Part shown: positions 14,038 to 29,451 of the stretch, in pieces
Position numbering within the stretch: position 1 is the stretch's first letter
Layout: each line of letters starts with the position of its first letter
Assembly: GCA_963768425.1 (NCBI GenBank)
Contig: CAVYHV010000003.1
Location: forward strand, 1 to 34,640
Origin: Candidatus Bathyarchaeota archaeon
GTDB taxonomy: Archaea > Thermoproteota > Bathyarchaeia > Bathyarchaeales > Bathycorpusculaceae
DNA: 34,640 nt
Direction of reading: 5' to 3'
The notes under the pieces: model-generated
The model's database searches: none
Seen by the model: the letters and a program-made list of their open reading frames with translations, nothing else
Told to the model about the DNA's origin: nothing
Position numbers and translations under genes: made by a program

Positions 14038-14044
14038 TTATCAC

Positions 14045-14126: not shown

Positions 14127-14127
14127 A

Positions 14128-14405: not shown

Positions 14406-14744
14406 TTAATGACGCCACACTACCTCTAGTATTTGCCACAAAATTGTTACGAAAATTATCGCAATACCAAGGTTCATCATAAAAGCAATTGCGATACCCC
14501 AAGGGATGCCCGCAAGCGGAAACGATGGCACAGGTCCCGAACTTGGACCAGTAAAGGAATATTGAATATATGTGTACACTACCTTTCCGAGGAAAGTGAC
14601 AACGAACCCTTGCGACCAAGTGGAATTTCCTGCACCCGTATCCGTTACTGTAAATATGTTGTGGCACCCTGCTGGAACCTCCAAGGAAGTCATCGGTAAA
14701 GCTAATATTATCCCTACCAGCAAAACGAAAACGAAAGCTCTCAT
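14406..14744 (-). CDS. Small secreted/membrane-anchored protein (transposon cargo)
   Basis: Signal-like N-terminus MRAFVFVLLVGIILAL and C-terminal hydrophobic helix. Confidence 0.55.
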   Translation of the reverse strand: MRAFVFVLLVGIILALPMTSLEVPAGCHNIFTVTDTGAGNSTWSQGFVVTFLGKVVYTYIQYSFTGPSSGPVPSFPLAGIPWGIAIAFMMNLGIAIIFVTILWQILEVVWRH

Positions 14745-14815
14745 TCTTGCCCAGACCAAGACTGTCAGTAGTTTTCCAGAGAATAGTTAAGGGCATCCAA
14801 TAAAGATTTTACGAT

Positions 14816-14868
14816 CATCAACCGAATATTCACATGAATGCTATTTCAACCGAGAACTTCACAGAACC
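14816..14868 (-). repeat. Right terminal inverted repeat of cargo transposon
   Basis: Reverse complement reads GGTTCTGTGAAGTTCTCGGTTGAAATAGCATTCATGTGAATATTCGGTTGATG. Confidence 0.85.
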
Positions 14869-14913
14869 GTATTTTGTTGTTTTGTTATTTTGCTAACATT
14901 TTATATTAGTCTC

Positions 14914-15278
14914 TTGAGGGAAAACATTCGACTCAAGACTCTGAAAACGCTGAAAAAGCAACTGAACCGTTTAACACTCGACTGCCTAAAACTCTTCACA
15001 CCGCCGTCGAAGTCCAAGCTGCAAGAGACGACTCGTCCCTTCAGAAGCTTTCACATGGCGCCTACAGGCTTTATCTCTACATCAGGGAAAACGAAGACTG
15101 GAAAGACATACCTGAAGTGCAGAAGAAAAAGGAAATCGAGAAGAAAACAATGTCGCTGCGTTGTCTTCTTGCTGCTAGAAATGACTTGGCTAAGCAAGGC
15201 ATGGATGTATCCTGGCTAGACGTGGGCGTACAGAAAACCGAGGTGTTCCTGCTTAAAAAATTGGAGCTGCCGGCATGA
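14914..15278 (+). CDS. RHH/HicB-like DNA-binding protein, start probably frameshifted
   Basis: Open frame 14910-15278 encodes PFNTRLPKTLHTAVEVQAARDDSSLQKL and ends with an ATGA overlap on the next gene; TTG at 14914 is one base out of frame. Confidence 0.55.
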
Positions 15279-15760
15279 ACAAGTCACTGCTTCTTGTTCT
15301 GCTTGCAGTCTCCGCAGCAGCGTTCAGTTTCTGTGGAGTCTTCTTCATCTTCCAGAAATCCCCGGTCTTAGCGGACTGCAGTTTACTCGGGTTATTTATC
15401 AGTGCAGTCTCAACGGTGACGGCGACCAGTTTTATCTGCCGCGGCATGCCCTCGGAAAAGTCGGAAAAGAAGAAGGCGGCGCCGAAAAATCCGCAGGTTA
15501 AGCCGGCGTCTGAAGCCGTTGAACCTGAGTCCGAGCCAAAATTGCGCAGCACGATGCTTAAGGCCTCTGTGCTGTTAGAGGGCGCAACCGTTCTGTTTGA
15601 TGAGTCACAACTGGATCAGGTGGCTCAGATAGTGGTAGATCGCAGCAGCCAGCTTCGGCTGCAGATCATGCCTGAAACTAAACCTACTGATGTGGCGCCT
15701 GAAAAAGTTGAAGCCCCTCAGCAACCTGCAGAAACAGAGCAAGAAAGCAGAACCGGCTGA
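15275..15760 (+). CDS. Membrane protein (two N-terminal helices)
   Basis: Two hydrophobic segments followed by a charged, Pro-rich tail. Confidence 0.7.
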   Translation: MNKSLLLVLLAVSAAAFSFCGVFFIFQKSPVLADCSLLGLFISAVSTVTATSFICRGMPSEKSEKKKAAPKNPQVKPASEAVEPESEPKLRSTMLKASVLLEGATVLFDESQLDQVAQIVVDRSSQLRLQIMPETKPTDVAPEKVEAPQQPAETEQESRTG

Positions 15761-15801
15761 AAAGACGCCTCTACCCCTGGTTATGCATAGGAGAACCAAC
15801 A

Positions 15802-16068
15802 ATGACTGAAAAAGCTAAGAAACCCGTTGCATCCAACAGAAACCTTCACAGTGGATCCGTAATCGCGTCAACAATCCTGTTTTTCGCAGCGTTAGCTGCC
15901 TTAACATTGTCTTCTATTCTGTACCCTGGCGTTTCCCTGTTTAGCCTGCAGAACCCAATGTTCTTTCCAATCTGGGGATTAGCTGGCTGCACATCAGCAA
16001 CCGCGCTGGTTGCCGAAGGCTCTGCAGTAAAAGCGCCCAAACCGGAGGAGGCTTCTAAAGTTGAGTAA
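15802..16068 (+). CDS. Small two-helix membrane protein
   Basis: AGGAGA RBS; 88 aa with two hydrophobic segments. Confidence 0.7.
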   Translation: MTEKAKKPVASNRNLHSGSVIASTILFFAALAALTLSSILYPGVSLFSLQNPMFFPIWGLAGCTSATALVAEGSAVKAPKPEEASKVE

Positions 16069-16741
16069 GAAAGCTACCACGTTGATTTTGCTTCTCTGCC
16101 TAAGCTGCTTATCAACAGCTTTAGTAAATGCGCAGTTGCTTTCGCCCTCAGCGCCGTCAATTTACCCCGTGAGTTTCCCAAACTTTGACATGTACGCGCC
16201 AGCCGAAATCGTCGTTACCTACACATACACTCAGAGCTACCAGGTGACTGTATCCGACTTTGGCCAAACCCTGCATCAAGAGCTCAGCAGCCCAACATCA
16301 ATGACTTTCAACACGACCGCCGACGACGTCTACAACATCACCTTCGCAGTAAACTACGACGTCTACGTCAACCAAACAGTCGCGGTAAGCCTCTTCGAAA
16401 CGGGACTTGGCGTCGCCAAAACCATGGAGCTCGGCATGGACAGCAAAGGCTTCATCATCAACATGATCGTAAGCACAAGCACTCCCCCGACGTTTCCCAA
16501 CGCAAACCAGATCGCCCAGCAAATCAGCGCCCTATTCACCAACCAAGTTAACATGCTGCAGAGCAGCAACAACAACACCATAAACAGCGTTATGACCGCT
16601 GTAACCTTCAGCTGCGCGCTCTCAGCAATAGCCATCGGCATAACAGTCGGCGTTCTGCTGCTGTTTATGCGTGGAGCCGTCAAAAAAGCGAAAATCGACT
16701 CTTTGCTACATAAGAAACCTGACGGAGGCAAGCAGGCATGA
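16061..16741 (+). CDS. Secreted, C-terminally anchored surface glycoprotein
   Basis: Signal peptide, beta-rich ectodomain with NTT/NIT/NQT/NNT sequons, C-terminal TM and basic tail. Confidence 0.75.
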   Translation: MSKKATTLILLLCLSCLSTALVNAQLLSPSAPSIYPVSFPNFDMYAPAEIVVTYTYTQSYQVTVSDFGQTLHQELSSPTSMTFNTTADDVYNITFAVNYDVYVNQTVAVSLFETGLGVAKTMELGMDSKGFIINMIVSTSTPPTFPNANQIAQQISALFTNQVNMLQSSNNNTINSVMTAVTFSCALSAIAIGITVGVLLLFMRGAVKKAKIDSLLHKKPDGGKQA

Positions 16742-17826
16742 TGTGGTTCATCAGCTTCATGACTTACTTCGGCGTAACCGTGATGGTGGCCCTTATGGGC
16801 TTAATCTTTTTTGTTTGGTATCGGCAACGAGCAGCGCCCGGTCCAGGCGTAGTCCTCGGCGAATACGAGGTAATCGGTTGCTACGCCGGCCAAAAAATCC
16901 ACACGCGAATAAAAGGCATGATGGTTGACGCAACCAGTTTTTTCTGTGCCTCAGACCTAACAGAACCTTTCAAGGACCTACTGTACGGCGACATCGACCG
17001 TTTAATCACCAAAAAACCCGCTGAGAAAGCTCCCGTGGAAGACGACAACGAGAAGCCTGAACAGATGAAACCGGATCCTGCATTAGCTGCGGAACAAGGC
17101 ATGCTTGAAAAAATCAAGAAGCAACTTAAAACTTTTCCCCTCGACAAGATCGCCACAGTAGCCATTATCCGCAACGGAGTTTTCGGCGAGAGACACTTAC
17201 TCATAAAATTCGACGAAATCAACGGTAATGGACCGCGCAGCCTCACCGATTACGCGAGCAACGAGGAAGAAAGCCACTTCACATTTGCCTTCGGACCCGT
17301 AAACAAAGGCCTCATCAAAGGCCGAATGCAAACTTTAACCGAGCCCTGGGAGTTTTCAAACGAACGTTTTCCACTTGGCGACTTCCCCGTTGGCACCGTC
17401 CACGTTCTTGTACCTGACGACCCAGTTACCAACCAAAAAAACGAAAAAACCGAAAAAGCCGCCTGGAACCTTAACGCTGCCAAACTGCTTCTCCACGTGC
17501 CAAACGTAGTTCGCCAACAAGAACACATGAAGAGCATCATGCAGCAAGTGAAAGACAAAGACTTCGCCCTCGCCCAAATGGGCGTTAAATACTCTGCGCT
17601 GGCAACAGAAACAGATGTGCTCCGCAGAGCAGTTAAAGGCTTCATGACTGAAGGCCAGAAACTTGAAGACTTGTTTCCGAAGAAACTTGACGTGCTGGAT
17701 TGGCTTTGCATCGGATTGTTCCCAACCGTGGGCTGGGCTGCTGCAGGCGCCCTGGGCATAACCTCTTTAGTAGGCGTAATCGTCGGCGAAGCATGCGCAG
17801 GATTCATTATTTACTGGCGGAAGTAG
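16738..17826 (+). CDS. Membrane protein with N- and C-terminal TM helices
   Basis: Hydrophobic N-terminus, coiled-coil-like segment, two C-terminal hydrophobic helices; ATGA coupling. Confidence 0.75.
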   Translation: MMWFISFMTYFGVTVMVALMGLIFFVWYRQRAAPGPGVVLGEYEVIGCYAGQKIHTRIKGMMVDATSFFCASDLTEPFKDLLYGDIDRLITKKPAEKAPVEDDNEKPEQMKPDPALAAEQGMLEKIKKQLKTFPLDKIATVAIIRNGVFGERHLLIKFDEINGNGPRSLTDYASNEEESHFTFAFGPVNKGLIKGRMQTLTEPWEFSNERFPLGDFPVGTVHVLVPDDPVTNQKNEKTEKAAWNLNAAKLLLHVPNVVRQQEHMKSIMQQVKDKDFALAQMGVKYSALATETDVLRRAVKGFMTEGQKLEDLFPKKLDVLDWLCIGLFPTVGWAAAGALGITSLVGVIVGEACAGFIIYWRK

Positions 17827-17836
17827 AGGCTGAACC

Positions 17837-18682
17837 ATGTCTTATGAAACCTACACGTACCAGGGCCAGCTGGACCAGCTTAAAAAAAACCGAGAAGACA
17901 TGATTGACGCTCACAAGCAAGCCCGCGAATTCATTAATGGACCGAAATTCATTGATCCATCTAACCTCTTGCCAAACAAGAAAACTTTTGACGACTTGAT
18001 ATCGAAGCTCGAGGCGCACCTGATAACTTTAACTGAGGAAACACAGCAGCCGATGCCTACTGTACCCGGAGGCAACCAGCAGATCCTGCCTTTCCCCGGA
18101 TCACCAAACGAAAACGGCGGTAACCGCCAAACAACATTAGACGAACACTTAAACGGGTCCGCCGCTGCATCATCCGGCTTCAGCCTCCCAAAAGTAATCG
18201 CGTTAAGCGTAGCCTTCGTCATATCAGGTTTGCTTGCGTGGAGCCACGTGATTCCGCCAGACTGGTTCGCAGGTGTACTGATAGTCGGCTTCGTTTTCCT
18301 CTTCTTTGACCAAATAAAAACCACGTTCGTCGACTTCTTCAACAAAACCAAGGAGCACGAGGAAACAACCCGGTCTAACCAACTTGAAAACTGGATCACT
18401 GAAAGCTTCCAGTGGATCCGCGAGAGATACACAAGCGCCGTCCTGCTTGTGCAGATACAGACAAACAGCAAAAAAACGTTGCCTGACGAATGGGCGTTGC
18501 CTGACACAGCCGAAGTCCTCAACAACCGGTCAATCTACTTCACAACAACGTTGCCCACTGAATTTCTAACGCGCATCGACAGAATCATAATAAGCTGCGA
18601 AAAAAACGTTTGGACCCGGCAACAAGTGCTAATTAACGCTATCGCAGTGACGAAGTCGGCGGCGGCCAGAGGGCCGACGTAA
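17837..18682 (+). CDS. Membrane protein with central TM hairpin
   Basis: VIALSVAFVISGLLAW and WFAGVLIVGFVFLFF helices; stop overlaps ATPase start. Confidence 0.75.
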   Translation: MSYETYTYQGQLDQLKKNREDMIDAHKQAREFINGPKFIDPSNLLPNKKTFDDLISKLEAHLITLTEETQQPMPTVPGGNQQILPFPGSPNENGGNRQTTLDEHLNGSAAASSGFSLPKVIALSVAFVISGLLAWSHVIPPDWFAGVLIVGFVFLFFDQIKTTFVDFFNKTKEHEETTRSNQLENWITESFQWIRERYTSAVLLVQIQTNSKKTLPDEWALPDTAEVLNNRSIYFTTTLPTEFLTRIDRIIISCEKNVWTRQQVLINAIAVTKSAAARGPT

Positions 18683-20826
18683 TGACTGCCACTGAGGCTG
18701 AGGCGCCCCAAGGCCTCGCGCCATCCGTCCAGTTCTCGCTTGGCTTCAACAGTTTAGTCTGGGTTGAATCACTTTTCAAACGCATAATCGACGGCGTAAG
18801 CGGCCGAGGCGGAGTAGAAGCCTTATGCAGCTACATGGACAACATCGACTTCATACCCGAACTTGTTCCCCTGCGGCAGCAGATGAAGGTAGACAGCATC
18901 TTCTTCGAAACAGCCCTGTCAAAATGCAACAAGGAAATGCTCAAGAGGCCTGAAAGCCAGCGGGAACAAGACGTCCAAGACATAATGGGCTTCGAATGCA
19001 GCGGCTGCCACCGGCAAGCAAGCCTGCTAACGATGGCCTCCGCCCATGGAACCTGCACATGCGGGGGAAAATACGCGCCTGCATACGTCGACGGCTTGCT
19101 TAAGCTTCTGGCCAGGCACATGGCGCCGTCGCCTGAAGCCGTTTTAATGAATGTGGCGTATGACCGAATCGCCAACGCCTACGTAAAAGCCTACGAAGCG
19201 CTTAAGCTTGTGATGGATCAAACAGCCGGGTTCTTCGGTTGGGACCGCTTCCGCATTGAAGATCCACAGCTTAGAAACTACCTGGACCAGTTCTTCCTGG
19301 GAAAAATGACTGGGGAAAGCAAGATTCCACGGGAAGAAAAAGAGGTCCTGCAATTCCTCATCAGAGCCAACTTGGCGGGCGTGGATCTTAAAACTGCAGG
19401 GAAAATCATTCGCTTAGCCATTGACGCGGTAAAATACGGTTACCTCTACGAAGTCCTCGGCTGCGCAGGAGCCTATCCCCTTTACGCGGAGACACTCGCC
19501 AACTTCAACCCCCTATACGACGAAGTTAACATGCGGATTCGCCAGGCGCTTTCGTCGGACCAGCATGAAGGCAAACACATGAAAATCCACGTTAAAAAAA
19601 CGCTTGGCGGCTACTATGCACCGTGCCTTCTGATGCCAAGGAACTGCTGGGAATCAGGGAAAATCGCGCAGGACATAGAAATGGAGCCGATCACCAGGTT
19701 CCCGATTTTTCCAAAAGCAGACTTCGGCGCCCTCCAAACAGTTTATGCGCCAGTCGGCGGCGGAAAAACCGTCCTGTTGAGCGCAGTCGCCTGCTACTCT
19801 ATTAGAGCCCGGGAAGAACTGATTTTCAGCCCGCTGGGCGACAAAAGCAACAGCTTCAGCTTGGCATGCATGCCACTCTTCGCCTATGACGACCGAACCA
19901 AAAAGCTCCTGCATCGACTAAAAGACACTTTAGGAGTGGAACCCGCGCCAGTTCCAGTCTTAACACTGAACATCCTCCAAAAAGGCGACAAAATCACAGA
20001 CGAAGACAAGAATCCCCCCACAGTCTTCGACCGAATAGTGGAAGTTGACGACCCAAAATCCTTTGACTTGGACTTCAAAGAAGTAATGGAAGAACTCAAA
20101 AAAAGCGGCGAATTTCTGGATTTAGGGTACAAGTCAACAACCGGCATCATCGTCGCCCGCAACTTGGACAGGTACTACGGCAAAGCAAACGTCAACATCG
20201 ACGTGCAAAACGCAATCACCCTTCTCCAGCAGTTCGACGCCTACCGAAAAAGCCATCTAAAACAGGCCTCACGAGTCTTCATCGACGAAATCAGCTACCT
20301 CGCCTCGGCCCAGGTCACCCTGTACGGCAGCGACGCCCTCAAAAGCGGCGCCACAATCAGCGACTTCATAAAAGAATCCAGACGAAACAAATCCAGCGTC
20401 GATACCGCCACCCAGCTTCCCCTGGAGGTGCTTCCGGAAATACGTGACTCCGCAACAAACGTTTTCTTCCGGGACCTGGCGCAGAGCAAAGACAAAAGCC
20501 GCAGCCAAATAGACTTCCTACTTGAAAGCTTAAAACTTAAGGAACCCACGATCAGGCCAGTGATCAGAGACATCAACGAACGCGGCCTGCTGCCGAAAGG
20601 CTACTGGTTCTGGTACCACAGGCCAGACAGAGAGATCCAGGTGATTAACCCTTGCCCACCAACCTTCTGTCTGCAGGATCCAAACAAGACGCCCAAGCAG
20701 CTCTTCAAAATGTGGCATAAAATCTCTGGGCAAAACCTGCTACTGGAAAGTTGGAAGGATGTGCCGCGCCTCAGCGTGCACCAAGGCGATAAACAAGAGA
20801 GGAAAAAAGTCAAAGGTTACGCATAA
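18682..20826 (+). CDS. P-loop ATPase, FtsK/HerA superfamily (packaging- or VirB4-like)
   Basis: Walker A APVGGGKT, Walker B VFIDE, then ESRR and TATQ motifs; N-terminal CSGC...CTCG zinc site. Confidence 0.75.
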   Translation: MTATEAEAPQGLAPSVQFSLGFNSLVWVESLFKRIIDGVSGRGGVEALCSYMDNIDFIPELVPLRQQMKVDSIFFETALSKCNKEMLKRPESQREQDVQDIMGFECSGCHRQASLLTMASAHGTCTCGGKYAPAYVDGLLKLLARHMAPSPEAVLMNVAYDRIANAYVKAYEALKLVMDQTAGFFGWDRFRIEDPQLRNYLDQFFLGKMTGESKIPREEKEVLQFLIRANLAGVDLKTAGKIIRLAIDAVKYGYLYEVLGCAGAYPLYAETLANFNPLYDEVNMRIRQALSSDQHEGKHMKIHVKKTLGGYYAPCLLMPRNCWESGKIAQDIEMEPITRFPIFPKADFGALQTVYAPVGGGKTVLLSAVACYSIRAREELIFSPLGDKSNSFSLACMPLFAYDDRTKKLLHRLKDTLGVEPAPVPVLTLNILQKGDKITDEDKNPPTVFDRIVEVDDPKSFDLDFKEVMEELKKSGEFLDLGYKSTTGIIVARNLDRYYGKANVNIDVQNAITLLQQFDAYRKSHLKQASRVFIDEISYLASAQVTLYGSDALKSGATISDFIKESRRNKSSVDTATQLPLEVLPEIRDSATNVFFRDLAQSKDKSRSQIDFLLESLKLKEPTIRPVIRDINERGLLPKGYWFWYHRPDREIQVINPCPPTFCLQDPNKTPKQLFKMWHKISGQNLLLESWKDVPRLSVHQGDKQERKKVKGYA

Positions 20827-21461
20827 TGTTTTTGCCAGCTACCTTCTACGCTTACGGCGCAAAACACCGACGCATCGCCCTGCACACAATAAAGAAAGCC
20901 AGTGAATGCCCCACAGACTGGGCGCAACTCAAGTTGCTTGTCACCAACGACTGCGTCCCCGTTCTTTTCTACGAGCACAAGTTAACCTCCGCGATCATGA
21001 CGTTTGAAACTCACCTTTCAGGAAAATACACGGTGCACACTGAAGGCGGAGTCAGAGTAGCCAAGGGCGGATACGGCGACATGCGTCTTCGCTTCCAACG
21101 TGGCGTCGAATGGACCGGCAAAGTAGTTTTGAACCCAAAGAACATGAAAGTCACAATCAGCAACTGCCAGTTTGGACCTAACATTTGGCTGCTGACCGCC
21201 GACTACTATGAGGAACGAGGCGTAAAATACAGGTCTCCAAACATTATTCCCCGACAGCTGCCGAAGCCAGGCGACCCCAAAGGCCTGCTTATGGATCCAA
21301 GCGCTTCCCGTTACGCTGACTACTCCAGGCAGCCCAAAGGACCATACGATTTCGAGCAAACAAAAAATGTGGACCTCAGTTACCGCATGGAAGCCGACGT
21401 CAGAACATATTTGCCTGAAGGCTTCTACATCCACGAAGAAAAAGAGAAAAAAGTTAGTTAG
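20826..21461 (+). CDS. Hypothetical protein
   Basis: 211 aa ORF coupled to the ATPase stop codon. Confidence 0.7.
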   Translation: MFLPATFYAYGAKHRRIALHTIKKASECPTDWAQLKLLVTNDCVPVLFYEHKLTSAIMTFETHLSGKYTVHTEGGVRVAKGGYGDMRLRFQRGVEWTGKVVLNPKNMKVTISNCQFGPNIWLLTADYYEERGVKYRSPNIIPRQLPKPGDPKGLLMDPSASRYADYSRQPKGPYDFEQTKNVDLSYRMEADVRTYLPEGFYIHEEKEKKVS

Positions 21462-21622
21462 TCAGGTTGCCCCTTAACTTTTCCCTGCTTCTCAAGGTCC
21501 GTTAAGCTATCCAACACGTCGATGATGTTCAGCTTAAGGTCCTCAGCGATCTTCTCTTCTGTCTCGTTCGGGTGCTCTCCAATGTAGTCAAGGATCCGCT
21601 CGTTATTTTCCTTATTCGCCAT
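21458..21622 (-). CDS. Small acidic winged-helix protein (54 aa)
   Basis: Read by hand: MANKENNERILDYIGEHPNETEEKIAEDLKLNIIDVLDSLTDLEKQGKVKGQPD. Confidence 0.7.
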   Translation of the reverse strand: MANKENNERILDYIGEHPNETEEKIAEDLKLNIIDVLDSLTDLEKQGKVKGQPD

Positions 21623-21633
21623 TTCATCCCCCT

Positions 21634-22467
21634 CTAGAATAATGATGGAACCACTGGTTTGTTGGGTTTCTGTTTGCTTGGACCCGGCTCAGCAAGCATC
21701 CATCTTCGTCTCTGCCGCTTGTTCTCTGCCAGCATGATTTCAACGCCGAATTTGCTTCCGTCCTTGCTCATTATGGGGCGCAGGAAACCAACGTACATTT
21801 TGCCGTAGCCATGGCTGAATTCTTTGATCGCACCCACTTTCCCAGTTTTGATAAGGTCCGCACCCATTTTGCGCAGGCCATCCTCGTCAGATTCGCCTTC
21901 TCCCCAAACCTCCAGGAAACTGTAGGGCAGAAAGTTCGAAGGCACATCAGCATCAACCGGCTCCACTTTAATGTCCTTGGTCTTTGAGATCTGAACCGGC
22001 TGCAAAGTGCCATCCGGCATCTCCTGAGCTGTGCGAACATCGGCTTTAGCGACTTCGTTACCTTTCTCATCAAACCACTTCTCAACTTTAGAGGGCCCAA
22101 TCAACTCTTTATGCACGATCTCGCCCTGCGGCCCGATATGCTTGATTTTCACAAGTGAATCCGTCTTCTCCGTTTCGTAGCGGACATCTGCCGAGACGCT
22201 TATGCCGATGTTCTTGTACTCCAGCTTCGCCTTGAAACCCGGCGGCAACTTCTCCTCAATAACTTCAGCTGCTGCAGCTGTCTGAGGCATCTTAAGAACC
22301 ATAGTCTTCTGTTTAGGCCTAGTAGCCGCTTTAACAGGCTGAATTTTTTTAGCTGCTGCCTGAGCCTGTTTGGTCTGGGTCTGCTTCTTAAGCTTCGCGG
22401 AAACAACGTTTTTAACTGTAGATTTCCGCTTCAAAACATACTGCTGCTTACTGGCTGGCTTCTTCAA
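21634..22467 (-). CDS. Divergent Ku-like DNA end-binding protein with basic N-terminal extension
   Basis: GNEVAKADVRTAQEMPDG, KTKDIKVEPVDAD and LIKTGKVGAIKEF...VGFLRP follow, in order, the prokaryotic Ku segments GEEV.YEDIVKGYE, TKTIEIEEFVD and L..TGKVAIAKF...ALRP; DNA ligase two genes away. Confidence 0.6.
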   Translation of the reverse strand: MKKPASKQQYVLKRKSTVKNVVSAKLKKQTQTKQAQAAAKKIQPVKAATRPKQKTMVLKMPQTAAAAEVIEEKLPPGFKAKLEYKNIGISVSADVRYETEKTDSLVKIKHIGPQGEIVHKELIGPSKVEKWFDEKGNEVAKADVRTAQEMPDGTLQPVQISKTKDIKVEPVDADVPSNFLPYSFLEVWGEGESDEDGLRKMGADLIKTGKVGAIKEFSHGYGKMYVGFLRPIMSKDGSKFGVEIMLAENKRQRRRWMLAEPGPSKQKPNKPVVPSLF

Positions 22468-22497
22468 TACTCAACACTTCTTACAAGAAAAAACAGA

Positions 22498-22776
22498 TTA
22501 TTCCAGGTTTTGGCCGATCCGCAATTCCCATTCGTTATCAAAATTGCTCATCAACGAAAACAATTCGCCTTCGTCAGTGTCTTCCACAGGAACCGCGAAC
22601 CATTTTCCGCCTTTACTTAAAACTATACGTTGACCCTCGTCAGTATCCTGCGTTCGTGCTGTGACACCCATCAGGATTGTCCTCTTCTGCTTTGAATCTA
22701 AAACCTGGCCAAGTCGCTTCATAGGGCATATTCGCGGTCTTCGCCCATACGTTTTCTTGCTCTCTTTCCTATACAC
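22498..22776 (-). CDS. Hypothetical protein with basic N-terminus
   Basis: GTG start after GAGG; lies between ligase and Ku-like gene. Confidence 0.6.
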   Translation of the reverse strand: MYRKESKKTYGRRPRICPMKRLGQVLDSKQKRTILMGVTARTQDTDEGQRIVLSKGGKWFAVPVEDTDEGELFSLMSNFDNEWELRIGQNLE

Positions 22777-22806
22777 TTGAGACGCCTCAAAAGAGAAAAA
22801 AGAAAC

Positions 22807-23826
22807 TTAGTCCGGCAACTTGACTTGCGCCGCCGGTTTATCTGGTCTTTCCCTCAAAAAGTCAGGCATGCGTAGGATCCCGTTTGGCGTGCGATTAAGA
22901 AATTTTACTTCAATAACCATTTTAGGCTGCACCCAGCCCTGCACGTTGACGTCACCGGGAACAACAACCTGCGGCGCCTTCGCCTGCATCGATTTCATCT
23001 TCTTAAGCATCGCGCCTAACTCGGAGTTCTTCAGCGCCGCCGTTCTGCCGACGTAGTGTAGTTGGCCTTTCTTGTCTCGCTGCGCCAGGATCAGGGAGCC
23101 GAAGGTTGATGCACGTGCGCCTTCACCTTTAGTGTAGCCGACGACGATTGCTTCGTCGCTTTTCCAGTTTTTGACTTTTATCCACTCCGGCGTCCGAGCA
23201 CCTTGCCGGTAGGGGCTGTCAAGGTCCTTGAGGACGACGCCTTCCAGTTTTCTCTTCTCAAGTTCCTTGAACTTGTTTTCCTTCGCTTGGACGCCTCTTA
23301 CGCTATCTGGAACAATGATGTGCGGCGTGTTCTTGGGAATAATGGTTTTGAGGATCTCCATGCGGTCCTTGTATGGTAGCCCCTGCAGGTCCTCGTCGTC
23401 GACGTAGAGAACATCGAAGATAACCAGCTTCGCCTCAACGCCTTCTTCCTGGATCTTCTCGTCGTTGGCCAACGCATTGAGGAAATAGTCCCGGTCCGTG
23501 CCCTTCTTGAAAAAGGTGAATTCGCAGTCGAAGATTGCCCGGTCAACCGGCAACGTTTTGACTTCAGCAAGTATTTCGGGGTGTTTGAGGCCGTAGTCGT
23601 TTACCCAGTTTCTGCTTCCGATCAACTGCACACTGTCGTAGTCTTTGATTCCTGCGGTTCTGCTTCCATCGTATTTTCTTGTCTCGTCTTTTTTGGGGTC
23701 TTTAATGTCGGCTTTGGTGCCGTCTTGAACCAGCATTGGAGTGATTTTCTGATGGTAAATCGCTGGTGCCGGAGGCCGCTTTTTTCTGGCGCCATATTGA
23801 GAAGTCGACTTTGGGTTGTAGGGCAT
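22807..23826 (-). CDS. ATP-dependent DNA ligase (LigD/LigC-like minimal ligase)
   Basis: Motif I KYDGSR, III FDCE, IIIa IFDVL, IV EGVVLK, V WIKVK, OB domain with LRMP.F.RERPDK. Confidence 0.92.
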   Translation of the reverse strand: MPYNPKSTSQYGARKKRPPAPAIYHQKITPMLVQDGTKADIKDPKKDETRKYDGSRTAGIKDYDSVQLIGSRNWVNDYGLKHPEILAEVKTLPVDRAIFDCEFTFFKKGTDRDYFLNALANDEKIQEEGVEAKLVIFDVLYVDDEDLQGLPYKDRMEILKTIIPKNTPHIIVPDSVRGVQAKENKFKELEKRKLEGVVLKDLDSPYRQGARTPEWIKVKNWKSDEAIVVGYTKGEGARASTFGSLILAQRDKKGQLHYVGRTAALKNSELGAMLKKMKSMQAKAPQVVVPGDVNVQGWVQPKMVIEVKFLNRTPNGILRMPDFLRERPDKPAAQVKLPD

Positions 23827-23901
23827 GGCTATCGGAAGAAAAATGATTTTTGTTACGCCGGCAAAAAAAGGTCTCCGACTGCGGTTTCTAGCGTAACATT
23901 T

Positions 23902-24471
23902 TTAGAACGCCCAAACCAGTTTGGGTACGCCTAAAGCTTTGGCTGCTTCGTCTCTGGCCTGGTCGGTGCCCACGTTTCCCAGGTTCTTTAAGCCTTGAGG
24001 CGTAACCAGCTGATAGGACCTGCCATAATAGTTGTGTTCTCTGCCTCCGCTGGCCTGAGAAACCTCCAGTACGGATCCGACTGGGTAGCTTCCGCTGAAC
24101 TTGAACTTCATCAACGTTTTGGTTTTCTTTTCTGCTTCCTTCTTTTCCTCTTCGGTTTTGGCTTCGTCAATGGCTTTTGTATCCTTGATTTTCCGCCAGA
24201 TCTTCGCTATGTCGATGAAGGACCGTGTTACTCGGCCCTGAGAGTCAACTTTCAACTGGGCTGCCCAGCTTTTTCCTTCCCGCGGATCCAGAAACGCGCT
24301 TTCAAAATTAACTTGCGTAATCTTCTGCACCGGGGCGGCTGGAGGCGGAGCAAGATGCGGTTTAGCTGGAGACTTGACTGGAGACACAGGTGTCTTCTTC
24401 ATGGTTAAGTTTGGAAGAAACGTTTGGCGTCTGACGCCGTATTGAGATGTCTTTTTAGGGCTGTAAGACAT
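23902..24471 (-). CDS. Hypothetical protein sharing its N-terminal peptide with the ligase
   Basis: 189 aa ORF; MSYSPKKTSQYGVR, Pro-rich linker, then a globular domain. Confidence 0.7.
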   Translation of the reverse strand: MSYSPKKTSQYGVRRQTFLPNLTMKKTPVSPVKSPAKPHLAPPPAAPVQKITQVNFESAFLDPREGKSWAAQLKVDSQGRVTRSFIDIAKIWRKIKDTKAIDEAKTEEEKKEAEKKTKTLMKFKFSGSYPVGSVLEVSQASGGREHNYYGRSYQLVTPQGLKNLGNVGTDQARDEAAKALGVPKLVWAF

Positions 24472-24594
24472 GGTTCCACGATAGAAAAAGAAATCAGTCG
24501 TTTTTCGGCTTGATTGTTAACGTGATCAGCTGAAAGTTCGGGTTCCGCGACCTTCTTGTTAAACGAACTTTCTGTTTTTCTTTCAGTGACTGAC

Positions 24595-25559
24595 ATGACA
24601 GTGTTTGACCCCCAAACTGAAGAGTTCCTGGCTGCCATGGGCACCTCCGCCAAAACGTACCGTCCGGCCCTAACAAAATTTCAAGCGTTCCTTGTGAATT
24701 TGCCGGATCCTTCCTGGAAAGATTCTGCTGCGCCGCTGCAGCTGTTCCTCGACAAAGTCGAAGAAGACATGACAAGGCCAAAGCGGCAGCGGCTGAGAAT
24801 AGCGCGGAAAACCCTCCAGGGCTTTGTCGACTACTTAAAAAGCAGCGGCAAATCGGGGAACACCGTGAACACTTACGTCGCCGCCGTCCAAAGCATGGCA
24901 TCTTTCTCCGAAACAGAGTTAACCCGAAAATTCGTTGACATACCTAAACCGAAAGCCAAAACGAAAGCGTATCCCTGGGGAGTGCAAATGCTTGAGAAGT
25001 TCATCAAGCTCGAGAAGAAACCACTGTACCAGGTGATCACAGGGCTTTACTGGCAAAGCGGATTAAGCGTCGGCGACGCAACAAGAATCCTGTATGGCGG
25101 CATAAAAGACGAGTTTGAAGCGGAAGTCTGCCCTATCTGCCTGGACTTTACCAGTGAAGGCCGACATAAAACAGGCGTGGAGTTCCGAAGCTTCTTTGGC
25201 GCAGAAACCATCGAGTTATTCAAACGTTACTTCAAAGCTGAAGGAACCCCTGAAGCTGAGGATCCCGTTTTCCAGTGGGTGAACGCGCCATCCAGAAGAA
25301 CTACGCGAGCATAGCTGAAGAGATCATTGGGTCATACGAGGGACGCAACCCAATGGCGGAGCACACGATCCGCAAAAAGTTCCGAACCAACATCGTCAAC
25401 GCCGGCTGCCCCGAAAGCTACGCGGAATATTTTATGGGCCACAACCTAGGCGGTGACCTGCGGAAAACCTACACGTTGATGAGCAACGACCAGTGGCGTG
25501 TAGAATACAAGAAAGTCATGCCTGCAACAGCGTTCAAACTGCCCAAAGTGGCTGTCTAA
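24595..25559 (+). CDS. Tyrosine recombinase/integrase (frameshift near 25270)
   Basis: SAM-like SGNTVNTYVAAV, SGLSVGD, RHKT, HTIRK, MGH and KTY; one extra T in gttttccagtg joins the halves. Confidence 0.88.
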
Positions 25560-25679
25560 TGCTCGAATTGAGGGAGCCACCCGAGAATGTTGGCGGCTAA
25601 TCAAAATTCTTGTGGCTGCGATAGCACAATCACAATAGTACATGTAGCATGATTCCCTGCCTATTCTCGGTGCAAAGTT

Positions 25680-25853
25680 TTGTCAAAAGCTCAACCTCAT
25701 CCAGGTCATGAAAAACACCTCTGCAAAATGGTAGAGGACAAAGTACCCATAGAGAAGATTAAGCCACTTGTGAAAGATGCGAAATACATCTGCAAAGGCT
25801 GCATGCGAACTGCTGCCAAAGCAGAAAGCCTCTGCGCCCCAGAACCTCTCTAA
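25680..25853 (+). CDS. Small His/Cys metal-binding protein (57 aa)
   Basis: Read by hand: MSKAQPHPGHEKHLCKMVEDKVPIEKIKPLVKDAKYICKGCMRTAAKAESLCAPEPL, followed by a T-run. Confidence 0.65.
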   Translation: MSKAQPHPGHEKHLCKMVEDKVPIEKIKPLVKDAKYICKGCMRTAAKAESLCAPEPL

Positions 25854-26129
25854 ACTCTTTTTTTGAAATTGGAATAGCTAATTTAGGATTGCTTTTTTCT
25901 ATCACACAATTTCGATTCTTGGTAACAGTAGGTCATTAGAAAAAGTTAGTTCTTTGGGAGATACTTGAAGTACTCCACTACGCCGCTTGCTATTCCGGTT
26001 AGGTTGTTTCGGCTTGCAGCAGTATGTCCGTCCACGAGAACACGGTCGTACTTCACGCCTTTCCTAACAACAATTCTCGGCCAGGCAGCCGCACCTGTGT
26101 TTGTTTTGGTCTCTTTTGCCGGTAACCCA

Positions 26130-26336
26130 CTAAGTCTCCTCCTCTTCGTCTCGGTCGTCAGTAGACGTTGTGTTGCCAGTTATGCTGTCTTCAATATCCG
26201 CTTGCACACATTCCTCGCGCAGCAGGATCCTGAGCTTCTCTTCTAGAGACTCGGCGTGGTCAGAGAAAATAGGTTCCCTGAGTTTTATCTTGAAAACTTG
26301 AGCTCTCTTCCTTCTTCGCTTCTCTTGATAACTCAA
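26130..26336 (-). CDS. Small hypothetical protein (68 aa)
   Basis: TTG start after AGGTGA: MSYQEKRRRKRAQVFK...DEEEET. Confidence 0.5.
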   Translation of the reverse strand: MSYQEKRRRKRAQVFKIKLREPIFSDHAESLEEKLRILLREECVQADIEDSITGNTTSTDDRDEEEET

Positions 26337-26994
26337 CGCTGCTTCACCTACAAGAAAAAACTTCAAGAAAATTATTTCCAGTTTTCTTTGCCATTGAAAA
26401 CGTAGAGCTTGCCGTCTGGGCCCAAGTCGCTGATTACTTCAGTGTTAACTGGCAGCGTCACCTTGGACACGGCGCCGGTGCGTTTGCCAGTTTCCAGGTC
26501 CCGGCCGTAATGGTCTCGTGCTTCAGTTCGGCTGTCGCATAGCCAGATTATAATCGCTAAAACAGAATTAAATTATTAACAACTTTAAAGCTTTTGCAGA
26601 AGAAGTAACCATTAAAGTGCCCTATGTGTGGTGGAGAGTTTAGTTGAAGAATGAGCCTAATTGTGATTGTTTGACAGTGTTTTTCGCTTTTGCTTTCTTA
26701 TTTACATGGTTTTGGAGTTGGCTTCGGAGTTGGTTTTGGAGGACACGTTGGTGTAGGGGTTGGTTTCTGTGTTGGTTTAGGCGTTGGTGTCTGTTTCCGT
26801 TTTTGGATTTACAAATCAAGTTTGGTGTTTTCCGAGAAATGATTTGGTGATTCTTTTTTGGTTCTGGGCTTCTTCACCTGCTTTCTTCTGGAAACTCCTA
26901 GTTAGCCTCTGGAAACTAGAGGTATGGAATAAGTGATTGGGCCCGACAAAGACGTTCCAACTGGAATTTCAAGGAAGACTTACAGCTCTGAGGC

Positions 26995-29451
26995 TCAAGT
27001 TATCTTACGTTTTCTTGCTGTTGCCATTAAGCATAATGACACTGCAATAAATAGTATAAAAATTGCCAGTAATGATGGAAACTCTGGAGTTATCGGAGAT
27101 GGCGTATTAGCTGTACTATAAACGGTTGCCAATTGAGCATTACTGTTAAGCTCAATAGCTTGTTCATCTAAGTCCATTCCATTATTGCTGCTTTCTAAAA
27201 CTATTGTATTGTTGCCGTGGGAAATGTCGATTGCAGGTATGTCAAAAGTATATGTTTGGCCAATAGTGCTCATGTAAATGGTGTCGACAGGGTTTCCTTT
27301 GTTTTGCGAAAATGAATCGTAATCGCTTACAATATTTGGAATTGAGTAAGCGGTTACATATGTTGGATTGATTACGGCTTCCGTTTTTACCGTTAGGGTA
27401 TAGTAGTTTGATTTTGCATTGGTCGGTATAATGGTAGTGTCAAAGGTGTAAAAACAGACTATTTTTACTCCGTCACTGAACATTATCATCGGTGTTCCAC
27501 TGGCACCGCCTATACTTTCAAATCCACCATAGGACAGCGGAAACATTGTTACAGAGGTCACAAGTCCATTTTTGGAGATTATTGGTGTCGGAACAGGCGT
27601 TGGTGTTGTTTGTGATGGTGTTGGCGATGAAGTAGGATTTGTAGTTGGTTGTTGAGTAGGCGTTGGTGAAGGAGATGGTGAAGGGCTTGGGCTTATGGTT
27701 GGCGTTGGCGTAGGTGTTTGTAATGGAGTAGGTGTGGCTACAGCAGTGGGTGAAGGTGTTGGAGTTGGCGTGGGGGTTGCAGTTGGTTCAGGAGTAGGGG
27801 TTGGTGTGAGCGTTGGATTAGGAGTGGGTGTTGGAGTAGGCGTTGGGCTTGGTGAAGGAGAAGGTGTAGGAGTTGCCGTGGGGGTTGGAGTTGGAGCTGG
27901 GGTAGAGGCACTTATGCTTCCAACCTGCATCGTGCTGTCGTATGTTCTGAGCCCGATTGCGCCCGAAGCAAAAGTTGAGTCTGTCGTGGTTAAAACAAGA
28001 ACATTGTTTACATTTAATGTAATAGTGCTTCCTTGAGCAACAACCTGTAAGGAGTAAGTTCCAGCGCCATTAGATGATGCAGTTCCAGAACCTTTTATTT
28101 CAGAGTATGTTCCGCCAACGACTTTACTTATACTGTATTGATGCCCCCAGTCACCTATGCCTGCCCAATAGAAATCGTTTGAATCGCTGAATCTGAAAAC
28201 AATGCTGGCTTCTCCTCCTGCAGATATGGTAACAGGTGTAGTTATTTGATAGTCTGTCCATGAACTGGGACCAGCATACATTAAAGCCTCTGCAGAACTT
28301 GACCCTTGCACTCCACCGCTTGTTGGTGTCCATGTGCCGTCTACAATAGTCCAAGCATTCAGATTAGCAAAGTTATCATTAAACGGCAATGTTGGAGTTG
28401 GCGTTGGAGTAGGTATTGACGTTGGAGTGGGTGTTGGTGAAGGCGTTGGTGTCGGTGTAAAGGTTGCTGATATTGTAGTTACCCCCCGAACGTTTTGGAT
28501 ATTATAGGAGCTAACTGCGCCAACGGAAGTTCCGTTAACCGCAACATCAAGGATATCATAATCAGTGTTAGGTGTTATAGTGAAGCTTTTACCGCCGCCA
28601 TAATTAAGGCTAAAAATTCCACTTGGAGAAATAGAACCACCGGCACCAGCAGAAGCATTAATGCAAATTGGAGCCTCAAAGTTAGGTTCGGTTAAAAATG
28701 GAACAAAATTAATGACACCGAAATTAAAATCATCCTTAAAATCATACATTGTTTGGTTAATTGCCTGAGAATCAGTTGCACCCCACCAATTATTGGGTAC
28801 ATCAATGTTGTTTGAGATACCGTTGTATACATTGTACTGATTGTTATAGATATTGTTGTAAAATATACTAGCCGATGAACTATCTACCTCTATCCCTGTA
28901 CCTGTTGGGTTACCAATAATAGTGTTGTTTTCTATCGCTGGGCTTCCTCCTGCAGAAATGCCTAGCGAACAATTATAAATTAGATTATTGGTAATTTGGT
29001 CGTTGTCTCCTGTTTCAATACCACGACCGCAGCCTGTTAAGATGTTGCCAAAAATTTCAGCGGCTGCATTAGTATTTTCATAATCGGCACAAAGGATTCC
29101 ATCGCCTCCCTCTCCTTGGACTCCAAATCCCTCAATTGTATTATTTGAAATAATCGGAGAACCTGAAACTGGTAATTCTGAATAAACTGAGATTCCCGTT
29201 GGGGCAGGTATATTCAATGCCGTTGATTGAAGCAAAATATTGTTATTTGATATTATTGGTGATCCTCCGCTTATTTGTATTGCACAACTTTGATAATTGT
29301 CATCAATGCAGAATACTATAGTATTATTATCTATCTTAGGCGACGCATTTTGTATGTTAATAGCATAGGTTCCTCCATGTTGTACTGTCATGACTGCATT
29401 TTCGATAATGCAGCCAGTTCCACTCTGTTCATTCCAACTGTTACTCAAGGG
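26995..29451 (-). pseudogene. 5'-truncated cell-surface protein (beta-helix repeats, beta-sandwich domains, Pro/Thr linkers, PEF-CTERM anchor)
   Basis: ISNNxI repeats, NNWWG motif, long PT repeats, C-terminal PEF + TM + basic tail; no signal peptide, and the ORF's first 15 codons lie inside the IS end. Confidence 0.8.
27585..27905 (-). repeat. Pro/Thr/Ser low-complexity coding repeat
   Basis: Degenerate 6 bp repeats encoding (PT)n and (PS)n linkers. Confidence 0.85.

Follow-up and report, generated by a model that had tools for sequence, protein, structure and literature searches.

A short N-terminal leader peptide common to unrelated proteins of a bathyarchaeal mobile element

The two similar N-termini encoded in the DNA analysed here (the window, 34,640 nucleotides of a Bathyarchaeota contig) both represent a modular leader peptide, the mark of a class of soluble proteins encoded by a mobile element. 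The leader, or tag, has about 16 residues, is predicted to be disordered and stands at the start of at least 17 protein families that are not related to one another. It begins with Met, most often followed by a small residue (Ser, Thr, Ala, Pro or Gly), then Tyr and three or four Gln, Arg or Lys residues; a second part reads Lys, Gln or Ser, Tyr, any two residues, Arg, Arg, with the second Tyr 8-9 residues after the first. A linker rich in Pro, Ala and Lys joins the leader to an unrelated folded domain. The carriers include a DNA ligase, a Ku-like protein, a protein with the LPD29 domain, an AAA_5 ATPase and about a dozen uncharacterised proteins. The tag is probably a client peptide, that is, a sorting or docking signal recognised by some common partner.

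The likeness was noted in an initial annotation of the window, which proposed that the peptide was a packaging or delivery signal. Recomputed from the stored sequence, the N-termini of a 189-aa protein (complementary strand, 23902..24471, ATG start) and of the ligase (complementary strand, 22807..23826, ATG start) were indeed identical at 10 of 14 residues. Both tags, the first 14 codons of each gene (24430..24471 and 23785..23826, complementary strand), have Tyr at positions 3 and 11. As reported, four of the identical residues are encoded differently in the two genes: Pro5 (CCT/CCA), Lys6 (AAA/AAG), Thr8 (ACA/ACT) and Tyr11 (TAC/TAT). The tag DNA is identical at 32 of 42 bases, with 12, 11 and 9 matches at the first, second and third codon positions, respectively. 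A six-frame scan of the whole genome (2.96 Mb) with the strict pattern, its core pentapeptide and three looser patterns matched only these two N-termini, so that chance is excluded as the source of the likeness of the pair. The Pro-rich segment described after the tag was present in both ORF translations.

The 189-aa protein is composed of the tag, a Pro/Ala/Lys-rich linker and a beta-rich domain. It had no family match in Pfam, PHROG or further family searches, and three homologues were found. The best AF2 model had a pLDDT of 72.8, while the remaining four were near 40; residues 1-38 had values below 50 and are predicted to be disordered. The model gave generic beta-sandwich matches only, with Z of at most 5.7. 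The tag of its own orthologue in a related element (L010) was identical at only 3 of 14 residues, so the general motif must be looser than the pattern first proposed: the shared motif exists, but in a less strict form, and the 10/14 likeness of the window pair is lineage-specific. An unrelated 136-aa protein has 8 of 14 tag residues in common with that same orthologue; tags have been exchanged between genes. In another copy of the 189-aa family (L009), the tag codons are in frame and ACG occupies the expected start position.

The tagged set comprised 55 distinct N-termini from 17 families. The first Tyr was at residue 2-5 in 52 of the 55 and the second was within the first 16 residues in 43, with a spacing of 8 (33 cases) or 9 (8 cases). 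When the first 25 residues were removed from the 17 family representatives, BLASTP found nothing in common among them (best E=0.16). The composition of residues 2-18 was basic and nearly free of acidic residues (Lys 18%, Arg 14%, Gln 13%, Tyr 11%, Asp+Glu 1%). The residue preceding the first Tyr was most often Ser (0.44, family-weighted), then Thr (0.13), Ala (0.09) and Gly (0.09). In 5 of the 17 families, the tag consists of the first half of the motif alone. Both tags that were modelled, those of the 189-aa and Ku-like proteins, are predicted to be disordered. A 189-aa tagged protein of a different element (L016) matched LPD29 (PF18847, E=5.3e-12) above the cut-off; it thus has a domain of the polyvalent-protein toolkit, although the carriers are encoded by separate genes rather than as a multi-domain fusion.

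The ligase is a minimal ATP-dependent enzyme of 339 residues (Pfam; PHROG 114), with an adenylation domain (DNA_ligase_A_M, PF01068, E=1e-27) containing the Lys-x-Asp-Gly motif and an OB domain (DNA_ligase_A_C, PF04679, E=1.3e-16), and with neither a DNA-binding domain nor a polymerase domain. The catalytic Lys51, Asp53 and Gly54 were invariant among 20 aligned ligases, and so were Tyr3 and Tyr11 of the tag, over a range of 46-100% identity. The linker that follows is variable, with a majority-residue frequency of 0.47 over residues 17-29. Among 75 ligase homologues, 23 had the two-Tyr start and 26 were untagged; the latter start at the Met of a conserved Pro-Met-Leu that opens the ligase domain and may be truly tagless or have miscalled starts. 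A comparison with chromosomal ligases, suggested at the outset, showed that these lack the tag. It was absent from the chromosomal Pol-Ku-ligase operons examined, and the stand-alone archaeal ligases adjoining Ku had no such extension. The ligases of two chromosomal operons (L017, L020) were untagged and 31-32% identical to the element ligase, compared with at least 46% identity within the tagged clade. Assignment as a LigD-type end-joining ligase was rejected, there being no close kinship with the operon ligases; the name 'LigD' on homologues in the source records is automatic.

The other genes of the array bear weaker versions of the tag. The basic, Tyr-containing starts that had been reported for the 92-aa and 277-aa neighbours and for an ORF at 26336 are real but degenerate. 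The 92-aa gene (complementary strand, 22498..22776, GTG start) has Tyr2 and Tyr10, and its orthologue in L010 starts with Met, Thr, Tyr and then basic residues. In the 277-aa protein (complementary strand, 21634..22467, TTG start at 22467), only the second half of the tag is retained, and about 60-70 disordered, Lys-rich residues come after it, but the full two-Tyr tag was found in 5 of the 8 distinct N-termini of its close relatives. Its description as Ku-like was upheld by the fold. The AF2 model (pLDDT 76 overall, above 90 in the core) supports the Ku core fold of beta-barrel and bridge, and the top Foldseek matches in the PDB were all Ku (best E=1.6e-8, probability 1.00, TM about 0.4). No Pfam Ku match was obtained at E up to 0.1, and a profile of the family (43 homologues) placed Ku at the top of the PDB matches only at E=0.006; the protein is therefore a very divergent relative of Ku. 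The last gene of the array (complementary strand, 21458..21622) encodes an untagged 54-aa winged-helix protein with weak wHTH matches, and also follows the Ku-like gene in L016.

The tagged genes belong to an integrase-bearing element of about 31 kb, which is contiguous in a second Bathyarchaeia MAG and is split here between the contig of the window and a second contig, C19. They are separate genes of 61-515 aa that lie in three co-directional arrays. In the contiguous copy (45 ORFs, 9942 residues), the two-Tyr/basic motif occurred seven times, always at the N-terminus and never internally. A genome-wide regular-expression search placed 7 of 18 matches on the two contigs of the element (P=4e-10 to 2e-7), and the tag is restricted to element-borne proteins. 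As had been anticipated for a functional signal, it is retained in related elements on unrelated proteins; a third MAG has a tagged ligase/LPD29/Ku array and an ATPase homologue on one contig. The integrase, MCM, ParB_N protein, RHH, TFIIB-like protein, wHTH, a 714-aa ATPase and all membrane proteins of the element are untagged.

That ATPase (forward strand, 18682..20826), the hallmark gene of the element, has an N-terminal zinc ribbon and a P-loop. It had no match in Pfam, PHROG or NCBIfam, nor in the PDB even with its profile; leads from a language-model atlas (0.90-0.92) pointed to HerA/FtsK/DUF87/AAA_10/TraG-P-loop clusters, and the assignment to a superfamily comes from these leads only. 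Inteins were present in 4 of its 79 homologues. Five untagged genes upstream of it (forward strand, 15275..18682) encode membrane proteins, secreted proteins and one soluble protein. The module of membrane genes and ATPase is syntenic in distant elements, with the same order in L123 and L124; in these two, no tagged gene was present in the available 6.8 and 13.5 kb. With Pfam, PHROGs and NCBIfam, which leave many genes of the element without annotation, the window and C19 yielded no recognisable capsid, portal, prohead protease, terminase, relaxase or type IV secretion protein.

Selection acts on the peptide. Synonymous sites vary freely: Ser2 is encoded by TCT, TCC, TCG, AGC and AGT, Arg by both CGN and AGR codons, and Tyr by both TAC and TAT. 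A Shine-Dalgarno-like motif (-4 to -16) precedes the start codon at the tag in 20 of the 29 tagged genes for which DNA was available, and 19 of the 29 have a T-rich motif within 40 nt upstream. Such a T-rich motif lies in the upstream regions of both the ligase gene (complementary strand, 23827..23866) and the 189-aa gene (complementary strand, 24472..24511), the latter with GTGG before the ATG. The two regions were alike at 14 of 40 bases in an ungapped comparison. None of the three outcomes that the initial annotation had named as contrary to its proposal was observed, namely absence of the motif from homologous elements, a translation start downstream of it, and conservation at the DNA level.

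Several established signals were compared with the tag. Sec, Tat and class III signal peptides were rejected because none of the 55 N-termini has a hydrophobic run of 8 or more in its first 30 residues. The usual C-terminal placement of type IV (conjugative) translocation signals does not hold for the tag, all seven of whose occurrences in the element are N-terminal. Four explanations other than a client peptide were considered.

The alternative that survives best, although we consider it unlikely, is that the tag is a DNA- or nucleoprotein-binding arm, a basic, Tyr-bearing disordered tail that would tether its carriers non-covalently to the element DNA. Like histone-like tails and the arms of capsid proteins, it would give extra grip to a domain-poor ligase and a Ku-like ring, and any co-packaging would be a passive result of riding on the DNA. 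The basic, nearly acid-free composition of the tags, their disorder, the lack of a DNA-binding domain in the ligase, the further Lys-rich stretch of the Ku-like protein and the fact that several carriers work on DNA are all in accord with such an arm, and a disordered tail that is basic and aromatic might attach to nucleic acid or membranes with no need of a protein receptor. However, 1) both Tyr residues and their 8-9 spacing are conserved far beyond the need of an arm driven by composition, 2) the integrase, MCM, ParB_N protein, RHH, wHTH and TFIIB-like protein have no tail, 3) the AAA_5 ATPase has one, 4) the AT-hook core (R-G-R-P) occurred in 0 of 55 tagged N-termini and the SPKK core ([ST]-P-[KR]-[KR]) in 2 of 55, and 5) DNA binding does not require strict N-terminal placement.

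Somewhat more doubtful is a short linear motif that recruits the carriers to one hub of the host or element inside the cell, with no export; the Ku ring at DNA ends, the sliding clamp or a replication/repair 'factory' could serve as the hub. In end joining, unrelated repair factors typically have short terminal motifs in common, and entries of Ku with PAXX, XLF and APLF motifs were among the PDB fold matches of the Ku-like neighbour. A ligase without a polymerase domain needs a route to Ku, and an extended, Pro-containing tag with two anchoring Tyr residues resembles a groove-binding peptide. But the close relatives of the Ku-like protein are themselves tagged, which makes Ku a client rather than the receptor, and chromosomal stand-alone ligases beside Ku do without the extension. 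Neither the PIP box (Q-x-x-[ILM]-x-x-[FYW]-[FYW]) nor APIM ([KR]-[FYW]-[LIVA]-[LIVA]-[KR]) was found in any of the 55 tagged N-termini, and neither the AAA_5 ATPase nor the LPD29 protein is known to act at a clamp or a DNA end.

A turnover or processing signal, such as an N-terminal degron or a site of proteolysis or modification that imposes the same short life or maturation step, is improbable. Methionine aminopeptidase removes Met before small residues, so that the small residue before the first Tyr in most families predicts Met excision, and the motif does depend on its extreme N-terminal position. Against this, no conserved cleavage site follows the tag in the ligase alignment and the linkers vary, the element has no recognised protease gene, and a degron leaves the second Tyr and the basic block unexplained. 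A feature of the DNA or RNA, either a translation-initiation context or 5' ends recently duplicated or converted along with their promoters, is very improbable and largely refuted: the pair is closer to each other (10/14) than to an orthologue (3/14), which does indicate past conversion between neighbours, and the upstream motifs (19/29 and 20/29) and A-rich codons after the start are compatible with it, but synonymous sites are free to vary, Ser and Arg switch codon families, third codon positions show the lowest conservation within the pair (9/14), the upstream 40 nt are mostly unlike, Tyr is invariant down to 46% ligase identity and the tag is missing from many of the element's genes whose upstream motifs are similar.

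The client peptide accordingly remains the preferred reading. One common receptor would recognise the leader on all carriers. The tagged proteins may also be co-delivered with the element DNA, a plausible outcome that we hold with less assurance, leaving the cell inside a particle or by way of the conserved module of membrane proteins and ATPase. The existence and nature of a receptor, and co-delivery as the destination, are inferred. Once delivered, the carriers could act at once in the next cell, where re-joining of the incoming DNA would fall to Ku and ligase, and host defence and establishment to the other carriers. The tagged set would then be a 'polyvalent protein' split into individually addressed pieces. 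More speculatively still, the tag may be a previously undescribed address peptide of archaeal elements, with tag and receptor co-evolving as lineage-specific dialects and short conversion tracts swapping tags between genes. Related lineages have a second N-terminal motif, GF[FY]x[KE][GN], in 2 of 75 ligase, 5 of 43 Ku-like and 0 of 79 ATPase matches; it is the same phenomenon repeated in another 'dialect', and would represent a different leader on the same Ku-like and ligase families. If the reading is correct, the tag would be a sequence handle for predicting which proteins of elements in uncultivated archaea reach new hosts, and a portable loading signal.

A close precedent is the capsid targeting sequence of phage T4. 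Passages in PMC3012670 describe the T4 internal proteins as diverse proteins with this sequence alone in common, packed and injected with the DNA, several of them having anti-defence functions. Here too, diverse proteins have nothing but a short N-terminal peptide in common, but the likeness is an analogy, not homology. The host is an archaeon, the carriers include Ku and ligase, no scaffold, prohead protease or HK97-type capsid was recognised, and there is no conserved cleavage site. LPD29 comes from the polyvalent proteins of Iyer, Burroughs, Anand, de Souza and Aravind (2017), which are argued, in passages of that essentially bacterial collection (PMC5512222), to be delivered with phage or conjugative DNA. 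Both sets are toolkits of unrelated activities proposed to enter a new host with DNA; polyvalent domains make up a single giant polypeptide that often includes a processing peptidase, whereas here separate small proteins have the same leader. Ku carried by the mycobacteriophages Corndog and Omega is thought to help re-circularise the incoming genome by end joining, as stated in a passage of PMC4351075 citing Pitcher et al. 2006. The bathyarchaeal element likewise brings its own Ku. To our knowledge, the two phages rely on the host ligase and have no shared tag, whereas the element encodes both Ku and ligase, each tagged. Like the Ku-binding motifs of APLF, XLF and PAXX, which are short basic/aromatic terminal peptides on unrelated end-joining proteins, the tag is terminal, basic and aromatic, but it is also found on the Ku-like family itself and on proteins without an end-joining link. 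Short disordered terminal peptides suffice to address unrelated cargo in encapsulins (cargo-loading peptides) and in type III (N-terminal) and type IV (C-terminal) secretion, and the tag resembles these in kind; however, neither an encapsulin shell nor any component of a secretion system was recognised here, and we know of no encapsulin, type III or type IV signal motif like it.

A frameshifted remnant of a 61-aa family (complementary strand, 26053..26130; rest of the gene, 25946-26056) has the first half of the tag, and intact copies are present in L001, L013 and L010. At 26336, a TTG codon within a longer ORF opens a 68-aa ORF (complementary strand, 26130..26336) whose tag resembles the first half but has one Glu. 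The 3' fragment of a 137-aa tagged family (complementary strand, 26372..26548) marks the break point of this copy of the element, and the end of C19 carries the 5' part of a gene of the 137-aa type. The untagged tyrosine-recombinase integrase (forward strand, 24556..25559) is in two ORFs in the window and intact in L001 (324 aa); contigs from two runs have one extra C in this region, at 25268 or 25271.

The ORF listing of the window placed the 189-residue protein at 23902..24471 and the 339-residue protein at 22807..23826, both on the minus strand, with the second ORF 75 bases downstream of the first. The initial annotation had reported that these proteins begin with a common peptide; the two N-termini it quoted matched the ORFs exactly, and the 10/14 identity was reproduced on recomputation, as were the four identical residues that are encoded by differing codons. 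Over the first 14 codons of the stored sequence 32 of 42 bases were identical (12, 11 and 9 by codon position). The window is the entire contig C3 of an assembly of 2.96 Mb in 33 contigs, and a six-frame translation of this genome showed no occurrence of the strict motif, of its core pentapeptide or of any of three looser forms outside these two N-termini. The likeness of the two tags is confirmed and is not due to chance. By its domain matches (PF01068, 1e-27; PF04679, 1.3e-16; PHROG 114), the 339-residue protein is a minimal ATP-dependent DNA ligase. The 189-residue protein had no match to any family; its fold gave no Foldseek match below E=0.3 and only generic Ig-like sandwiches in VIA-align (Z up to 5.7), and the protein atlas held no usable match. 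Single-sequence PDB searches with this protein, its 277-residue neighbor and the 714-residue ATPase of the window returned nothing useful, and NCBIfam searches with ten proteins gave matches to AAA domains only.

The tag was found on many more proteins when the genome was scanned from all start codons with a regular expression calling for a start, at most three residues, Tyr, seven or eight non-acidic residues, Tyr and at least four Lys/Arg. There were 18 matches, two in the window and five on C19, the other element contig of the same genome, and the probability of at least seven matches by position alone was 4e-10 to 2e-7. In G001, a second Bathyarchaeia MAG, the element is contiguous over about 31 kb and the tagged genes form three co-directional arrays. 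The first encodes proteins of 136, 68, 172, 282, 515 and 354 residues and a 472-residue AAA_5 ATPase (PF07728, 1.3e-9 for the C19 copy), of which the ATPase domain alone matched actinophage ATPases in the phage collection; the second encodes proteins of 137, 100 and 61 residues, and the third the 189-residue protein, the ligase, a 90-residue protein and the 277-residue protein. The gene that follows the ligase in a third MAG, PLTA01, encodes a tagged LPD29 protein (PF18847, 5.3e-12).

In all, 55 distinct tagged N-termini were read from the stored sequences. The first tyrosine lay at residue 2-5 in 52 of them and a second tyrosine within 16 residues in 43; the two were spaced by 8 in 33 N-termini and by 9 in a further 8. 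Asp and Glu together accounted for 1% of positions 2-18. Weighted by family, the consensus was Met, Ser/Thr/Ala/Gly/Pro, Tyr, [Gln/Arg/Lys/Asn], [Lys/Gln/Arg], [Lys/Gln/Arg], x, x, Lys, [Gln/Ser/Lys], Tyr, Ala/x, x, Arg, Arg, [Arg/Lys]. The tagged proteins fell into 17 families, and when the first 25 residues were removed from one representative of each, BLASTP found no pair with E below 0.16. At least one member had both tyrosines with a spacing of 8-9 in 11 of the 17 families; the tyrosines were 10 apart in one family, and five had the first half of the tag alone. A word-indexed search found almost no 5-residue words in common between the tags of different families. The G001 element, with its 45 ORFs, contained the motif seven times, always at the N-terminus and never internally, a placement that holds after correction of one over-long ORF call. 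Elsewhere in the genome, on the minus strand of contig C9 (95567-96046), a lone ORF of 154-159 residues would begin like a tagged protein if its start were an internal TTG; it adjoins a SWIM-like zinc-finger protein in an apparently chromosomal context.

Codon usage and upstream sequences were analyzed for 29 tagged genes. Ser2 was encoded by TCT, TCC, TCG, AGC and AGT, arginine by both of its codon families and tyrosine by both of its codons. Judged from this codon choice, selection acts on the tag peptide. A Shine-Dalgarno-like motif preceded the start by 4-16 nt in 20 of the 29 genes, among them the AAA_5 gene with AGGAGG before its TTG start, and a T-rich motif lay within 40 nt upstream in 19 of the 29. 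The upstream motifs support the called starts at the tag, short of proof. The T-rich motif resembles TTTTTCT, lies 12-25 nt before the start and is followed by GGTGA or AGGAGG, as at 23827-23866 and 24472-24511 in the window and on the element loci L010, L012 and L013; it may terminate the preceding gene, form part of a promoter or act as a regulatory site. In the copy of the 189-residue family on the metagenome contig L009 (1010-1060), the tag codons followed a stop codon in the same frame; ACG occupied the expected start, and the next ATG came after the tag. Loss of the tag, a non-canonical start and a sequencing error are all possibilities for this copy.

The tag of the window 189-residue protein was identical to that of the neighboring ligase at 10 of 14 positions and to that of its own orthologue on L010 at 3 of 14, so that its likeness to the ligase tag is best explained by an old leader exchange or homogenization between neighbors, followed by synonymous drift. 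Outside the tag the two orthologues were about 50% identical. The L010 tag (L010, 52-585) in turn agreed with that of the 136-residue protein (L012, 2792-3202) at 8 of 14 and 9 of 26 residues, and the body of the latter was unrelated to the 189-residue family (BLASTP E=20). The tags behave as modules. A different N-terminal motif, GF[FY]x[KE][GN] with basic residues around it, was present in 5 of 43 Ku-like matches (P0083, P0085, P0091, P0093 and P0101), 2 of 75 ligase matches (P0031 and P0049) and none of 79 ATPase homologues. It started at residue 6-40, and all seven carriers were devoid of the two-tyrosine leader. The presence of a second N-terminal peptide on two unrelated families in other lineages suggests that the phenomenon has been repeated independently.

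Contig 1 of G001 carries a near-identical element in which both tags are kept. The window from 9273 to 26548 was 94-98% identical to it, except for a low-GC insertion of 3.2 kb in the window and one of 1.46 kb in G001. The former (11689-14868) has 36-40% G+C and is read as an insertion within the element, and its ORFs of 305 and 382 residues had no family match; nothing on the G001 contig corresponded to the first part of the window (1-9272). The metagenome contigs L009 and L010, two PLTA01 contigs and a collection of 5.8 billion proteins yielded more distant copies. The element is also present in sequencing runs of peat samples. The strict tag DNA pattern matched only the near-identical element among genome contigs and nothing among viral contigs. 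Among the viral contigs searched, the ligase alignment retrieved only distant ligases of 24-30% identity, and the 137-residue family had no relative. The 189-residue family was found only in the window's own genome among the 401 Bathyarchaeia-class genomes searched. The window copy of the element breaks off inside the tagged 137-residue gene (26372-26548), and the 5' part of a gene of this type lies at the end of C19 (40076-40411), the contig that holds the other tagged array. Since both parts are contiguous in G001, C3 and C19 probably represent a single element that was broken in two by assembly or by rearrangement.

The two-tyrosine leader was present at the start of 23 of the 75 ligase matches (E up to 1e-20), 20 of them recognized by the regular expression and three, with Glu between the tyrosines, by eye. 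Throughout the 20 aligned tagged ligases (46-100% identity), Tyr3 and Tyr11 were invariant, like the catalytic Lys51, and the residues between the tyrosines and the linker behind them varied. In another 26 of the 75 the first residue was the Met of the conserved Pro-Met-Leu that opens the ligase domain; these may be tagless or have miscalled starts. No tag was found on ligases of 38% identity or less, nor on those of two chromosomal Pol-Ku-ligase operons from archaeal MAGs.

The 277-residue protein had no Pfam match, and a search of 1.84 billion representatives gave 43 homologues. For a profile built from 33 of them, the best PDB match was bacterial Ku (E=0.006). The AlphaFold model had a pLDDT of 76 overall and above 90 in the core, with residues 1-70 disordered, and bacterial and eukaryotic Ku chains topped its Foldseek list (best E=1.6e-8); the protein is, on this model, Ku-like. 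Of the tag, the window copy keeps the second half alone, and five close relatives carry the full two-tyrosine leader. The Ku-like fold together with the tagged relatives indicates that the element encodes its own Ku-plus-ligase pair and that both families are clients of the tag.

The tagged proteins were all soluble and mostly had no assigned function. The tag was absent from the integrase, MCM, ParB_N, RHH, TFIIB-zinc-ribbon and wHTH proteins, from the 714-residue ATPase and from every membrane or secreted protein that the two structural modules encode. This partition argues against the tag being a general feature of the genes of the element. It also argues against a general DNA-binding tail, which is disfavored because obvious DNA-binding proteins are without it. 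A client peptide read by one receptor would account for the extreme N-terminal position, the predicted disorder and the flexible linker, for the two invariant anchors at a fixed spacing within an extended, often Pro-containing stretch, and for the modular exchange, the lineage-specific dialects and the restriction to one class of proteins. The broader claim, that the tag has a common partner, we regard as probable.

The cargo hints at the destination, since Ku and ligase are the activities that an element requires when its DNA arrives in a cell in linear form. The Ku encoded by the mycobacteriophage Corndog has been proposed to serve this role (PMC4351075). LPD29 is a domain of polyvalent proteins, and the authors who described these argue for their delivery together with the DNA (PMC5512222). 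The T4 literature describes an N-terminal peptide that can be the sole common part of diverse injected proteins (PMC3012670), and the present tag resembles it in that a short N-terminal peptide is the only part common to a diverse set of proteins. Co-delivery of the tagged proteins with the element DNA is favored by the Ku and ligase cargo, the LPD29 carrier and the T4 precedent, and we put it forward as a tentative reading.

The principle of a common terminal address peptide is already known. A search of open-access papers and preprints found no description of this motif, its archaeal setting, its breadth of 17 families, the Ku-ligase pair or the second dialect, nor of any cargo-addressing peptide of an archaeal mobile element, and we know of none. 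To our knowledge, the way in which viruses and plasmids gain a foothold in a new cell is unknown for Bathyarchaeia, as it is for most uncultivated archaea. The motif, with its 16 residues and two invariant tyrosines on 17 unrelated families, provides a direct experimental handle, and N-terminal scans could show which proteins of an element are clients. The element also carries a self-sufficient Ku-plus-ligase pair, which bears on the handling of linear DNA at entry. A shared leader marking out one functional class among the proteins of an element would be new for archaea even if the destination were DNA-bound or factory-bound rather than export.

The element may be either a virus or conjugation-like. 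Bathyarchaeia viruses have been surveyed and include tailed, filamentous and spindle-shaped forms, of which the spindle-shaped have an AAA+ ATPase and an integrase; the main text of the survey does not contain the word 'ligase' (PMC10848311). PHROG searches with ten membrane or large proteins gave one weak match. The 714-residue zinc-ribbon P-loop ATPase (18682-20826) represents a large uncharacterized family without a Pfam domain, and had no Pfam, PHROG, NCBIfam or PDB match even as a 26-sequence profile. In the protein atlas it lay near HerA, FtsK, DUF87, AAA_10 and TraG-P-loop clusters (0.90-0.92), which is a lead and not a test. The family comprised 79 homologues, which were 36-86% identical in the ATPase half, and one additional fragment; inteins were present in four homologues (P0150, P0185, P0194 and P0198). 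The ATPase gene forms part of a conserved seven-gene module with small membrane proteins (window 15275-18682 and 18682-20826), which was also found on two distant Bathyarchaeia MAG contigs (L123 and L124). A complex prediction for the ATPase (26-row alignment) and ligase residues 1-45 (20-row alignment) scored 0.01, a control-free value that gives no verdict. In PLTA01, the ATPase and the ligase/LPD29/Ku array lie on one contig with restriction-modification and nuclease genes between them. The intervening segment (locus L016 of PLTA01000046, 2720-9882) encodes a 610-residue metallo-beta-lactamase/RMMBL nuclease-like protein and an 1109-residue protein that, by eye, looks like a fused restriction-modification enzyme.

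Two genes of the window were each found as a pair of overlapping ORFs. The integrase (24556-25559) is intact, with 324 residues, in G001 (locus L001, 2953-3927), and contigs of two public runs had an extra C at 25268 or 25271 that would restore the frame (window 25268-25314); the split may stem from a genuine deletion of 1 nt or from a mistake in the assembly. The MCM helicase (5936-7980) consists of one ORF with the MCM_N and OB domains (5936-6649) and another with the P-loop and lid (6577-7980), which may reflect a frameshift or a split gene. Just past the broken end of the element, the window encodes an 833-residue protein (26995-29496) that is rich in Pro, Thr and Ser over long stretches and has a membrane anchor at its C-terminus; it is probably a host surface protein.
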